This document shows, piece by piece, positions 14,526-63,240 of a stretch of 64,000 nucleotides of DNA. This stretch comes from Octopus vulgaris. Taxonomy: Eukaryota. The position numbers and the translations under genes are program-made. Where the stretch lies: positions 103,850,001-103,914,000 of the forward strand of contig OX597820.1 of assembly GCA_951406725.2 (NCBI GenBank), read 5' to 3'. The notes under the pieces were generated by a model. It saw only the letters and a program-made list of their open reading frames with translations. It searched no databases and was not told where the DNA came from. Each line of letters starts with the position of its first letter. Position 1 is the first letter of the stretch.

Positions 14526-14985
14526 AGGGCAATTCAAGCTATGTACATATATTTGTGTGTGTGTATCTATATGTGTGTGTGTGTGTATGTATATGTGTGT
14601 GTATCTGTGTGTCTGTGTGTGTGTGTATGTATATGTGTGTGTATCTGTGTGTCTGTGTGTATCTATATATATATGTGTGTGTGTGTATACATTCATATAT
14701 ATATATATATATATATATAAAAACTTACTTGGAGAAAAGAAACGAAACGACGCGAGGGCACTCAGTCATACAATAGTGTAATAAATAAAATACATGCATA
14801 CATACATACATATATGTACGTACCTACATCTATATGTATATATACATGCATATATATATATGAGTACAGGACACCACAAATAAACGTAGAACACAACGAG
14901 AAGCGAAAACAAAAACAAACTAGGAAACGGACTTTTTTTTAACAACGAAAAAACAGAGTACAAGACAAACAATACAAGGAATATT

Positions 14986-15047
14986 CCCCTTCATCAGCTG
15001 TCCCTGGTTCGACTCAATGCGTGTTTCGAAGGTAAGGACAGAACACG
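14986..15047 (-). ncRNA. Candidate hammerhead ribozyme with permuted strand order, copy 1
   Basis: CGUGU U CUGUCC uuac CUUC GAA ACACG cauugagucgaaccag GGACAG CUGAUGA A GGGG. Confidence 0.55.
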
Positions 15048-15577
15048 ATCCGGTCGAAGCAATCCTTCCTGCAAAAGAATTAAATAAAATTCTTTTGCAG
15101 AGGGGTAAAACAAGGAAAGAAAAAAATGTGACAAGAACAGGACGTAAAAGCAATACAAATAAAAATACAGTACACATAAAGAATAAAAACAGGACAATGA
15201 AACCAACATTGAGGGCTTTTTTTTAAGCCAAGACGATGGAAAAATTCGGAGCGCAAGAAAAAAAGTCGATGTTGACTTGTAGAAAGCTGCGAGCAAAAGA
15301 ACGTTGGTAGTGCACTCAGCAGTGAGAGAGATGAGGGGGAGTGAGAGATGAGGGGGAGTGAGAGGAGAGATAGAGAGGAAAGGAAACCAGAAAGGGTGAA
15401 AAATAAGGAGAGAGACAGGTAAAGAGGAAGACAGTCAGGAAGGAAGGAAAGGTCAAGTAAAGGGTTACAGAGTTCGTGTCATAATTATATATAAAAACTT
15501 ACTTCGAGAAAAGAAACGAAACGACGCGATAAAATATATGTATACATACATATATGTACATATATATATATATATAT

Positions 15578-16016: not shown

Positions 16017-16303
16017 AGCTTAGAGAAGAAGAAGAAACGAAACGAAACGAATAGAATCGACGCGAGGGCGCTCAGTCATACAATAGTGTAATAAATAAAA
16101 TATATGCATACATACAAACATATATGTGCGTACCTACATCTACATGTATATATACATGCATATATAAATATATATACGTGTGTACAGGACACCACAAATA
16201 GACGTAGAACTCAACGAGAAACGAAAAAGTAAAAACAGCATGGAACGGACCATTTTTTTAACAACGAAAAAACAGAGTACAAGACAACTACACAAGGAAA
16301 AAT

Positions 16304-16364
16304 CCCCTTCATCAGCTGTCCCTAGTTCAACTCCAGCGTGTTTCGAAGGTGCGGACAGAACACG
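16304..16364 (-). ncRNA. Candidate hammerhead ribozyme with permuted strand order, copy 2
   Basis: CGUGU U CUGUCC gcac CUUC GAA ACACG cuggaguugaacuag GGACAG CUGAUGA A GGGG. Differs from copy 1 only in the linkers. Confidence 0.55.
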
Positions 16365-16629
16365 TCTCGTCGAACGAATCCTTCCTGCGAAAGAATTAAA
16401 TAAAATTCCTTTGAAGAGAGGTAAAAACAAGGAAAAAAATGTGACAAAAACAGGACGTAAAAACAATACAATTAAAAACAAATACAAAATAAAAATACAA
16501 CCATCCTCCAACCATGAGTCTGCTGCCCTAACCACTGAGCCATTGCGCCTCTACTTATATATAAACATATGTGTGTGTGTGTGTGTATGTATATATGTAT
16601 ATACATATATGTGTATACATGTATATACA

Positions 16630-16670
<41 letters not shown>

Positions 16671-17079
16671 ATATATATATATATATATAACGGGAAGGTT
16701 TACAAAAATAAACAAAAGACGAAGGCAGGTGGAGTACAAACAAACAAATGTATTAGTATAGCGCTCAGGAATAGAAACAGAAAAAGTATTTTACGTTTCG
16801 AGCCTACGCTCTTCGACAGAAAGATACGCAGAAAAAAATAAGGAGAGAAAAAAATGCGTGCAGGAGCTAACGATCTATCATGATGTCCTGACTTCGGACA
16901 GTGGTCAGACACGAGAAGGACAGTAGGGGAAATAACAGGGCCAAGTGACTTCCAAAACGAAGGTGCCCCCAACACAAAGGTGCGTGTGTGTATAAGAGAG
17001 TATGTATGTGCGTGTGAAAGAGGGCTGGTGGTCTGGACGTGTGTGTGGGTGTGGAGATGTAAGGATGGGTGTGTGGGTG

Positions 17080-26042: not shown

Positions 26043-27329
26043 TTGGGTTGTCAGGAAAGTTCGTACTGATTTTTAAAGGAAAGAAAAAAGTCAATAAATA
26101 CTTACCATTACATTTTTAATCAACCAATTATATGAACCATTTTGTTTCACAATACGTCTCCATCTTTCCTTTAACTTGAAAACATCCTCTTCCCAGAATT
26201 GAAGTGGTTTCATGGCAACGAATTCAGCAAGGTATCTTTTGACGTCATCCAAGGAATTGAAATTTTTACCATTAAGACTATTCTGCAGAGACCTGAATAA
26301 GTGGAAATCCGAAAGAACAATGTCTGATGAATACGGAGGGTGGGGTGACACATCCCAGCCGAGCTGCAGCAATTTTTGTCTGGTTCCCAAAGAAACGTGC
26401 GGTCTTGCATGATCATGTTGGAAAACAACATCCTTCCTGTTGGCCAATTCTAGACGTTTCTCTTGAATTGCTGATTTTAACTCGTCCAGTTGTGTGCAGA
26501 ATTTCTCAGAATTAATTATCTGGTTACTTGGGAGAAGCTCATAGTACAGAATTCCTTTCCAATCCCACCAGACACAAAGCAAGACTTTTTTAGGGTGAAG
26601 ACCCGCTTTTGGGGTGGCTAAGGGTGACTCATGTCACTTACTCCAGGATCGCTTTCTCTGAACATTTCGGTAGATAATCCATTTCTCATCACCTGTCACA
26701 ATTTGCTTTAAAAAAGGTGCGTTTTCATTCCGTTTATAAAGCGAATGACAGATGGAAATGCGATCCAAAAGGTTCTTCTCACTCAACTCATGTGGCACCC
26801 AAGCTTCGTAGCTATTTGTGTTCCCAAGCTTTACCAGGTGCTCATGATCAACGGATTTCGATAGGTTGAGGCTTTCTGCCAATTCTCGGGTTGTGTAATG
26901 TGGGTTATTCTCAATTAATGACTGATTTGGTCATCATCTGTAGTGGATGGTCTGCCTGATCACTCTTTATCAATAAGGCTACAATCTCCAGCTCGGAACC
27001 TTGCGAACCACTTCCGTACAGTTCTTTCGGATAAAGAAACATTACTGTAAACTGCACATATTTCTTTGGTTGCTTGTGAGGCATTTTTCCCTTTACGGAA
27101 AAAGAAAAGCATCAAGTTCCGAAAATGAGCTTTCTTATCTTCCATTTTAAAGGATTACAGAATTAATACAGGTTATAGGAACATAAACCTCCTTCCACGA
27201 AAAGATAGCTTGAACCGTGCTCTAAATGGAGGTGTAGTCAAATCCTATTTTATGGACTCAACCATGTTCTAAAATAAGTCGAAAGGTAAGCTACTATATA
27301 AATCGGCACGAACTTTCCGGACAACCTAA
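26043..27329 (-). mobile_element. Full-length defective mariner transposon (mellifera-subfamily-like)
   Basis: TIRs of about 28 bp (TTGGGTTGTC..GAAAGTTCGT), TA on the left. Transposase pieces MEDKKAHFRNLMLFFFRKGKNASQA, WVPHEL, GDEKW, HDHARPH, HPPYSSDIVLSD, broken by stops and frameshifts. Confidence 0.93.
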
Positions 27330-43600: not shown

Positions 43601-43717
43601 CGTGTGTGTGTGTGCATGTGTGTGTGTGTATGAACTAATATATATACATATATATATTTATGTATGTACTTACATACAGGTCCAAAAAGGGTACGGGTGT
43701 CGCTATATATATATGTG

Positions 43718-43978
43718 TGTATATGTAAAAAAATACAAACTGGGACAAGAACGCAAAACATTTAGAAGACGATACGAAAAACACGGACGGGACATTCGAA
43801 GCCTTCAATCTTCAGTCAAGAACCGGATCATCCTCGCAAGATTAATCAGCCGAAATTGCGAGGATGATCCGGTTCTTGACTGAAGATTGAAGGCTTCGAA
43901 TGTCCCGTCCGTGTTTTTCGTATCGTCTTCTAAATGTCTTGCGTTCTTGTCCCAGTTTGTATTTTTTTTACATATACA
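43718..43978. repeat. Long palindrome (arms of about 120 bp, 16-nt spacer), PLE-like fold-back insertion
   Basis: 43718-43839 is the reverse complement of 43856-43978, with one mismatch and one A indel. Confidence 0.92.
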
Positions 43979-44996
43979 TATATATTTATGTATGTATGTT
44001 CCTTTAAATACGCCGTCATTGGCCAGAGTTAAAAGTAATCAATTGAATAATAATCAAGGGGAAAGAAACACAGCATCAAGAATATTGATGTTTGTCATAA
44101 GTTGTCTCCCTTGTAATTCTTCCGTCTTGCTATGATGTTTTAGTTATTTCCCTTAGACAATGCTATATGAGGATATTACTGTAGTAGATAATATCAGATA
44201 GTCATCCATGTAACATATTTTATATAACTGATGTGAATCAAAATTTTACTTTATAAAGTAATTAGTAGCTCTCGTTGCAATCGTACGGCGACTTGAATAG
44301 AAGTAAACTAATCCTGATGAGCTCAAATAACAACGAAGGTTGTCGTTTCAATTCTTATTCGAAGCTTCTAAAAAGACCAGTCGTATTTTCACAAGACCTA
44401 AATTGGTATGACTCTTTATGCATATTTATTCCTAACACAAGCTGTATTCGTACGCAGTCAAAATGAGGAAGTTTTGTTTTTTAAATTAGAATTATCTCCC
44501 CTGACAATTAACACATTTCTATGTTGTTTATTAACAATATATTTCCTAGTTATTTATACCACATCGATAAATGCATGACGAAACCCATAGGATGATTGCA
44601 GTTTATTGTAGTTGATGCATTTATAATTTTGTATATCTTCTTAAAATTTTGTTTGTAGGAATGCAAAATACACATAAAATTACGGGCGCTGATGTCAGCG
44701 CCCGTAACTCATAGGAGAGAAAAACCAATAAATACAGGGGCCTGGCTGCTATCAGTTTACGTCGGTCGGCGTCGATACGTCGAGTGTTCTGAGACCCCGT
44801 GCTACTGATTTCCTCCGCAAAATCGGGATAGCAGCGTCCCGTTGGAGAAATGAGCCCCGCGGAGTGAAGTGGTTGTTGCAATGAATGTCACTGGTCAGTC
44901 ACCGCAGCAACGCCATCACGATAGTTACTGCCGGGCGCGGTTGAGCACCTCACTTGTTCTGAGATATGCTGTTCATCTCCCTTTCCCTCGGCTGCT

Positions 44997-62337: not shown

Positions 62338-63240
62338 CTTGATACACTCAGGCAATAACTATTTTCTATGAGCTTGTATATGTATATATTTATGTATATG
62401 TGTGTGATTGTAATAATTATTTGTGACACAACAGATAGAATATGGATGATAAATCAAATTAATACACTTCTCAATGTTATCTAGTGGTTGTATTTTGAGA
62501 TGTGACATCGATCATCGTTAATTACTGAAAGAACACTGGGTAAAAATTTCTTAAATAAATTAAGAACACGAACAAGCTGTTAAATTAAGATGTTTTGTTT
62601 ATAGTATACTTTTCAAAAGGCGGCGAGGAGCTGGCAGAAACGTTAGCACGCCGAGCGAAATGCTTAGCGGTATTGCGTCTGCCGTTACGTTCTGAGTTCA
62701 AACTCCGCCGAGGTCGACTTTGTCTTTCATCCTTTTAGGGTCGATAAATTAAGTATCAGTTACGCACTGGGGTCGATCTAATCGACTTAATCCGTTTGTC
62801 TGTCCTTGTTTAGCCCCTCGTGGGCAATAAAGAAATAAGAAACGTTGGGACGCCGGACGAAATGCTTAGTGTTATTTCGTCTGTCTTTACGTTCTGAGTT
62901 CAAATTTCGCTGAGGTCGACGTTACCATTCGGGGTCGATAAATTAAGTACGTGTTGCGTACTAATCCACTGGCCCTCTCTCCAAAAAATTTCAGGCCTTG
63001 GACCTAGAGTAATAAAGTATTATATACTTTTCAATTGCAGTCGTTTTATATTCTTGATACACTCAGGCAATAATTATTTTCTCTAATGAAATTGTATATG
63101 TTTGTGTGGGTGTGTGTGATTGTAATAATTATTTGTAACAAAACAGAATAGGGATGGTAAATCAAATTAATACACTTGTCAATGTTACCTAGTGGTTGTC
63201 CGTTAAGATGTGACATCAATCATCGTTAATTACTGAAAGA
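62338..63240. repeat. Direct repeat of about 190 bp (about 62338-62532 and 63053-63240) flanking SINE B copies
   Basis: CTTGATACACTCAGGCAATAA...CATCGTTAATTACTGAAAGA is duplicated. Confidence 0.8.

Follow-up and report, generated by a model that had tools for sequence, protein, structure and literature searches.

The window analysed here is a 64,000-nucleotide (nt) stretch of the Octopus vulgaris genome (contig OX597820.1, positions 103,850,001 to 103,914,000 of the forward strand), and its positions 43642–43996 contain a palindromic insertion of a non-coding Penelope-like repeat. The whole unit is one insertion in which two 5′-clipped copies lie head to head, an already known kind of Penelope insertion. 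The ribozyme predicted from intact copies of this family is a circular permutation of the type-SGC hammerhead, with two helices in place of the link between A9 and G10.1; the predicted architecture is a new form of a rare hammerhead type, found in an animal genome and accompanied by a genomic trace of activity. Our overall reading, to which we assign a probability of about two in three, is that the locus comprises two clipped copies of a non-coding Penelope-like element, that the rewired hammerhead predicted for the family likely cuts its RNA in vivo and that the copies are likely to be two separately primed complementary DNAs (cDNAs) joined via three bases.

The palindrome is an inverted repeat with arms at 43727–43839 and 43856–43968 (113 nt each, 99% complementary, with a 16-nt loop). 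An initial annotation, made from the letters of the window, had described an inverted copy turning through a CAA microhomology beside a permuted hammerhead motif; the copy is real, the turn is a 3-nt CAA overlap, and the strands CAAGA, AGCC, GAAA, TTGC, TCTTGA, CTGAAGA and GGCT are all located within 43837–43895. The arms differ by one substitution, by one T in the length of a T run and by a tail on one side, and both carry a common minor allele. The insertion exceeds the extent first given: its left arm continues through (TA)n to a 41-nt tail, which is the family sequence that follows the element 3′ end in tandem units and is present on the short arm and not on the long arm, and a direct repeat of about 25 nt borders the entire unit, as expected of a target duplication. 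Inverted head-to-head copies with a one-sided tail are a Penelope feature described in PMC3846280 and PMC8557442. The parts of the locus are as follows.

43642–43668, plus strand: left flanking direct repeat, a probable target-site duplication in AT-rich microsatellite, with one AT unit different from the right copy.
About 43663–43703, minus strand: 41-nt family tail of the shorter arm.
43704–43724, minus strand: (TA)/(CA) spacer separating the tail from the element 3′ end, identical in kind to the spacer of tandem copies.
43725–43839, minus strand: left (short) arm, an element copy 5′-truncated at +21 relative to the predicted cut (fold-back locus L147).
43837–43839, plus strand: CAA overlap between the arms.
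43837–43971, plus strand: right (long) arm, a tail-less element copy 5′-truncated at +2, one base past the predicted cleavage site.
43837–43841, plus strand: stem I strand 3′ of the cut, CAAGA, with U1.1 missing.
43847–43851, plus strand: stem II 3′ strand CAGCC (AGCC at 43848–43851); intact copies have its covarying partner, GGCUG, 23–19 nt upstream of the cut, and this copy lacks it.
43852–43859, plus strand: GAAA core (43852–43855) and stem III strand TTGC (43856–43859).
43866–43872, plus strand: 3′ strand of the bridging helix P0, placed like the type-SGC stem I–II interaction helix, its upstream partner being absent here.
43874–43886, plus strand: second stem I strand TCTTGA (43874–43879) and CTGAAGA core (43880–43886).
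43889–43903, plus strand: 3′ strand of the open helix after A9, which forms up to 15 base pairs (bp) with a strand about 70–86 nt upstream of the cut in intact copies.
43972–43996, plus strand: right flanking direct repeat.

The open-helix strand includes GGCT (43892–43895), which the initial annotation had assigned to stem II. Since the window copy is without the upstream ribozyme strands, it cannot fold as a ribozyme and is a product, not a machine. An assembly or chimeric-read artefact would account for the finding that no contig from four sequencing runs (contigs only) spanned the palindrome junction; contigs of a high-copy repeat cannot bridge such a junction, so this failure proves nothing, and the non-identical arms, the flanking direct repeat and 35 pattern matches at 30 comparable loci with other junctions leave the artefact a very slight chance.

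The family is present in at least 1,459 copies, a lower bound given by exact genome matches to an arm-derived 27-mer (0 for the reversed control). Its units are non-coding, about 700–860 nt long and 5′-truncated, with (TA)n or (CA)n as insertion targets. The partial tandems, inverted pairs joined head to head, optional tail of 30–40 nt and microsatellite targets match Penelope-like elements as described in PMC8557442 and PMC3846280; the unit contains no frame for reverse transcriptase (RT) and GIY-YIG endonuclease and is thus non-autonomous. A second group (clade 2) includes the family found at 15–16 kilobases (kb) of the window, where two intact copies with the same ribozyme scaffold are located on the minus strand:

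14975–15105 (approximate), minus strand: intact clade-2 copy.
16293–16425 (approximate), minus strand: second intact clade-2 copy.

The two window families had been called unrelated; their common scaffold and spacing identify them as distant relatives. A pattern for the clade-2 G..C core order matches the genome 5,050 times (control 0), and at least six subfamilies differ in the letters of stems I and III.

Intact copies of the window family read GCAAT-C-TCAAGA across the predicted cut, and a subfamily with GCGAT-C keeps a G-U pair. This supplies the strand GCAAT-H that the initial annotation had expected upstream, with C at the H position: the ATC triplet is found in 38/39 intact copies, and CUGANGA and GAAA in 37/39 each. 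The C, GAAA and CUGA-GA are invariant across 20 sequences of three groups at a mean column identity of 55%. A descriptor built with the stems first proposed gave 46 matches in S-G-C order, seven in canonical type I (CGS) order and none in any other, in a search covering 623 kb of loci enriched for these families. In the window itself, the bare GAAA..CTGANGA order is not above chance (7 seen, 4.6 expected; 20/100 shuffles), and Rfam at the gathering score returned tRNAs and no ribozyme match.

Covariation is found for both stem I and stem III, as anticipated for the S-G-C order. In the alignment, 88.9% of stem I cells and 93.3% of stem III cells are paired, with four pairs in each changed on both sides; older relatives confirm stems I, III and the extra helix P0 (88.5% of cells paired, 0/500 shuffles; slid controls 23–45%). 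P0 itself is 86.7% paired; a register shift among subfamilies inflates the count of its both-side changes. Of 95 core pairs that occur by chance in viral contigs, none passed stems I and III.

Stem II is formed differently from the first proposal. The strand before GAAA varies (CAGCC, CGGCC, UGCCC, UGGGC, CCUUC and GUGUC); the strand after CUGANGA does not track these changes, which are matched instead by a strand at a constant upstream position (GGCUG, GGCCG, GGGCA, GCCCA, GAAGG and GACAC). In 11 representatives, own-family against cross-family pairing was 5.55/2.62 for stem I and 5.14/2.60 for stem III (both p = 5e-5), 5.50/3.24 for the upstream stem II strand (p = 5e-5), 3.05/3.15 for the downstream strand (p = 0.68) and 7.14/5.54 for the helix after A9 (p = 0.002), with the p-values optimistic because the upstream partner was chosen after inspection and the representatives amount to three related groups. 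Stem II thus formed comprises 5–6 bp next to G12, and its upstream strand opens with a G opposite C11.1 in 11/11 representatives. Among 115 distinct contexts with stems I and III, stem II pairs upstream in 87 and downstream in four. Within 0–2 nt of A9, the strand that follows it is paired to a partner on the 5′ side of a long hairpin (H), and the 3′ end of this hairpin abuts the stem II strand. For two natural copies, minimum-energy folding gives the nested scaffold (z = −3.7 and −4.5).

In the predicted fold, the nested scaffold of the open helix after A9, hairpin H, P0 and stem III would leave four single strands. The loop of stem III would contain the cut, a stem I strand, a stem II strand and GAA, and would form two pseudoknots, one with the upstream strand (stem II) and one with the strand before CUGANGA (stem I). 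If the two inserted helices stack, A9 and G10.1 would be left side by side as a nick in place of a direct join. The core letters, a UH cleavage site, covarying stems I and III and a stem II with G10.1-C11.1 are all present as in a hammerhead; A9 is not connected to the stem II strand by at most 1–2 extra nt, and the three uninterrupted blocks of type-SGC, with the 5′ end before block S, give way to a split block C and a leading stem II strand. P0 joins the stem II strand, extended at its 3′ end, to the stem I strand, extended at its 5′ end, at the place taken in type-SGC by the interaction helix. Joining the type-SGC ends and reopening the chain between A9 and G10.1 gives the observed order, and the RNA is therefore a predicted circular permutation of type-SGC.

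A plain type-SGC hammerhead, with stem II formed by GGCU/AGCC after a 5-nt insertion and the upstream pairing acting as an off-state switch, would keep block C whole, as in the available text of PMC10085705. Family 1 offers four Watson–Crick pairs for it and L271, L276 and L299 offer four to five, and within clade 1 its pairing reaches 84.5% of cells, one pair having changed on both sides. We consider it improbable, as the downstream strand lacks family-specific pairing (p = 0.68) and is chosen in 4/115 contexts against 87 for the upstream strand, the L279 group has two pairs only, minimum-energy folds put the GGCU strand in the longer helix and a 5-nt insert exceeds the known 1–2 nt. Two other arrangements were rejected: older clade-1 relatives do not retain the pairing between G8-A9 and the linker that is seen in family 1 and clade 2, and, by eye, there is no stem III partner downstream for a canonical C-G-S reading that takes CUUCGAAU behind the core.

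If the predicted ribozyme is active, copies reverse-transcribed from cut RNA should end at or just 3′ of the cut. A similarity-ranked search with 43837–43970 was biased toward copies reaching the cut, and truncations were counted instead from position-ordered pattern matches: 91 copies anchored 3′ of the ribozyme among the matches listed (100 places), a sample that includes tandem and inverted pairs. Five internal deletions were dropped from the end counts, one in the +1 to +13 bin and four elsewhere; the loci with internal deletions between short direct repeats within the ribozyme region are L114, L085, L089, L102 and L086. Of the copies at risk, 25/82 ended at +1 to +13 before and 24/82 after this correction, compared with 26/594 in ten other 13-nt bins (Fisher p = 4e-11); 36 copies ran past −92. 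Genome-wide, junctions with (TA)n numbered 198 for about −13 to +17 and 24 for about −39 to −10, a difference that corresponds to roughly fivefold because the anchors differ and the second interval is reached by only about 60% of copies. By eye, 14 of 98 distinct listed junctions fell at +1/+2, four at −3/−4 and none further upstream, the four at −3/−4 being explained by letters common to the element and the repeat. The pile-up recurs in clade 2 at its own cut: among 30 ordered loci, ten ended at +1 to +11, one at −1 to −11 and one at −12 to −35, and 98 distinct listed (TA)n junctions included seven clearly upstream of the cut and three ambiguous (by eye), with a pattern that detects upstream junctions less well.

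This concentration of 5′ ends, which the initial annotation had predicted, likely records cutting in living cells, as judged from the genomic copies. The same boundary could arise from a transcription start in a terminal repeat, where Penelope promoters reside (PMC3846280), or from RT stalling combined with (TA)n microhomology, the fold then having another role or being a dead ribozyme; the AT-rich letters at +6 to +11 match the target, and more than half of the copies read through. We regard this as unlikely. The boundary sits at each clade's own predicted cut though the sequences differ, clade 2 has little AT there, other upstream AT-rich stretches show no pile-up, the catalytic letters are invariant across groups that have diverged to the extent given above, and an extra G, a possible cap trace, precedes 1/14 of the +1 junctions (by eye).

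The head-to-head junctions were compared at 26 of 30 fold-back loci. Their longer-arm ends span −4 to +16, with eight at +1 to +3, in a pattern that is blind beyond about −14; the expectation that they would meet at one point is replaced by a common zone. The tail, scored by script, is on one arm in 18, on both arms in none and on neither in eight, one of which shows a tail further out. In the 18 one-tail loci it is carried by the longer arm in nine and by the shorter arm in nine, the window locus belonging to the latter set. The junction overlap is zero, or an insertion is present, in 13/26. Among 91 ordinary anchor copies, six are tail-ended, three of them in inverted pairs.

The initial annotation had explained the palindrome by a cDNA that snapped back at the cut end and copied itself. 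The junction geometry and 3-nt overlap would fit this, as would arms that are 99% alike with a common minor allele, and self-priming has been proposed for Penelope inverted junctions (PMC3846280); the tail would then have been trimmed from one arm later. We find snap-back doubtful, because a self-copy cannot acquire a tail that its template arm lacks, and the tail is on the shorter arm both here and in 9/18 one-tail loci; the 13/26 junctions with zero overlap or an insertion also speak against it. Purified Penelope protein cuts and extends both strands, and it initiates at two positions, one at either boundary of the tail (PMC11167929). Two cDNAs, one for each nick and start site, joined at their 3′ ends, probably provide the best fit to the palindrome, and the template of the long arm most likely began at the predicted cut.

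The block order of the predicted ribozyme, stems I and III and P0 were recognized by eye at the 3′ ends of Naiad_Obim, Naiad_Ovul and the squid Naiad_Esco, with the identity of the consensus entries taken from their file order in the PMC8557442 supplement, and one genome repeat is near-identical to published octopus Naiad 3′ ends (by eye). In the genome, RT remnants bearing the Naiad DKA motif (L334, L335 and L337; RVT_1 E = 1.2e-4, below the Pfam cut-off) are followed, some 850 nt on and in the same orientation, by the ribozyme motif. The copies examined are broken off and degraded ahead of the part where an N-terminal GIY-YIG and CxC linker would be expected. This DKA-motif RT belongs to a related family with the same ribozyme scaffold and not to the window's own family, and the RT that moves the latter was not found. 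A young Penelope-like frame of 775 amino acids beside a family copy (L027/L221) was rejected as the partner because it was inserted separately and has a canonical-order core of its own; four further endonuclease fragments near family copies are likewise separate insertions.

That young family (L221, L191–L220; for example C2:60203676–60204722) gave 116 scored matches at 99–100%. Its frame of at least 775 amino acids contains RT, a cysteine linker and GIY-YIG, and its 3′ untranslated region has a hammerhead-like core in canonical order. One of its copies is inserted in the (TA)n that separates the 3′ end of the window family from the tail.

Craig et al. (2021; PMC8557442), in the text available, describe Naiads as lacking a canonical hammerhead and mark two cephalopod entries as 'half core'. 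By eye, the permuted order was not seen in the last 450–500 nt or so of the bivalve, hemichordate, fish, nematode, spider and ostracod Naiad 3′ ends in that supplement, nor in the Naiad_Omin and Naiad_Adux consensus ends, both of which are incomplete. The nematode and spider half-cores are in canonical order (by eye) and the bivalve ends carry another motif, so the permuted form is so far cephalopod. The hemichordate and bivalve Naiad ends standing before Naiad-2_Skow, Naiad-2_Pfla, Naiad_Sglo, Naiad_Pmar and Naiad_Mcor have in common a different 3′ motif, without a hammerhead core.

The nearest known relative of the predicted ribozyme is type-SGC (HRIMA-1; Eckert et al., 2023; PMC10085705), a non-circularly permuted hammerhead that cleaves in vitro and, in the text available, is known only from metatranscriptomes. 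Non-circular permutations are there known only from unassigned metatranscriptome or metagenome contigs, and CUGANGA and the stem II strand were assumed to be inseparable. The predicted cephalopod form resembles type-SGC in the cyclic order S-G-C, the core letters, the short link from stem I to stem II and a helix, here P0, that joins the far ends of stems II and I. It differs in where the chain is opened, since it begins with the 5′ strand of stem II and that strand's half of the joining helix, and in the two helices between A9 and G10.1, which split block C. The minimal type I hammerheads of Penelope-like pseudo-long terminal repeats (Cervera and de la Pena, 2014; PMC4209133) also place the core near the element 3′ end and were proposed to cut tandem precursor RNA; they are canonical in order and dimeric with a weak stem III, unlike the full stems, permuted order, two predicted core pseudoknots and genomic trace of cutting found here. 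The PK hammerhead (Zhan et al., 2024; PMC11300833) likewise has a pseudoknot at the helix II position; unlike the present form, it keeps G10.1-C11.1 directly after A9, and its block order is not described as permuted in the available text. In the open-licence literature, as far as it was accessible, we found no report of the predicted permuted form, and the supplements of PMC10085705 could list eukaryotic matches. The split-block-C form would escape all current descriptors, and more may therefore hide in elements said to be without ribozymes.

At the level of the element, the window family is like the Naiads of PMC8557442 in its (TA)n targets, 5′ truncation, tandem and inverted copies and one-sided tail, and unlike them in being non-coding, in its units of about 700–860 nt and in a 3′ end and tail that do not resemble the sampled Naiad. 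Animal non-long terminal repeat retrozymes (bioRxiv 10.64898/2026.07.22.740005) are also non-coding, ribozyme-bearing Penelope-like derivatives, occurring as tandems or monomers. According to the part of that source available they are defined by type I hammerheads in tandem units, with no molluscs sampled; the window family consists mostly of dispersed truncated copies with a permuted predicted ribozyme, an order that is not type I.

The locus, the family, the conserved core, the covarying stems with the upstream stem II, the pile-up and the one-tail rule are observations; catalysis, cutting in vivo, twin priming and a Naiad partner are what we infer. In the proposed life cycle, read-through RNA of tandem units would be cut after GCAAUC, and reverse transcription would begin near the element 3′ end at an AT-rich target nick. 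On cut RNA the template would run out after about 130–175 nt, and the cDNA end would shed 0–12 nt when joined to the target. About a third of copies would end at the cut, with the remainder derived from uncut RNA. Occasionally both target strands may be primed, one per start site bounding the tail, with the cDNAs joined head to head. The protein partner would likely be a Naiad-type RT-endonuclease.

Beyond the locus, we lean toward a broader picture in which an active, doubly pseudoknotted hammerhead of novel architecture, with a type-SGC core, is present many thousands of times in cephalopod Naiad-type elements and in the non-coding satellites of these elements. The ends of this core would have been relocated to a domain of two helices inserted between A9 and G10.1. 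The hammerhead would be the first family of non-circularly permuted ribozymes from an animal genome and would explain part of the puzzle that Naiads lack hammerheads, and the truncation map would be a fossil record of cleavage in vivo that sets the 5′ end of about a third of new copies.

Besides the optimistic p-values and the paired copies in the truncation sample, several observations count against this reading of the ribozyme and its activity. The downstream strand pairs equally well or better in 3/15 clade-1 copies (L276, L292 and L299), and the stem II first proposed is paired in 84.5% of clade-1 cells. The Naiad copy L318 is without a stable nested fold (z = +0.8), and the squid stem II is imperfect (by eye). 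In the literature searched, we found no hammerhead with helices between A9 and G10.1, and the accessible text of PMC10085705 gives insertions of 1–2 nt as the sole known kind at this position. Of the 25 family-1 ends, 19 lie at +8 to +13, where TTAATC provides microhomology to (TA)n. Neither an autonomous partner nor a linked reading frame was found for the window family in the loci examined. Lastly, in the available part of PMC11167929, cleavage by the ribozyme proved dispensable in vitro, and the element studied there showed no RNA ends at the site.

In contrast to that last result, hundreds of genomic 5′ ends here stop at the predicted cut, in two clades, and whether Penelope-like ribozymes cut in vivo and shape insertions becomes testable. 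The same is true of the extent to which a hammerhead core can be rewired: a natural form that splits CUGANGA from the stem II strand would break their assumed inseparability. The one-tail rule offers a simple test of how Penelope inverted insertions form.

Other features of the window include further hammerhead-like sequences. At 16790–16830, and in the upstream flank of L002, other repeats have canonical-order cores with altered letters and an extra A before stem II, and a minus-strand index of the window gave one canonical type I (CGS) descriptor match at 62410–62450. Between 23444 and 39795, seven tRNA-Ser-type genes occur on both strands within 16 kb, six of them equal in score; they seem to be part of a larger repeated unit, as those at 26304 and 35097 have common flanks.
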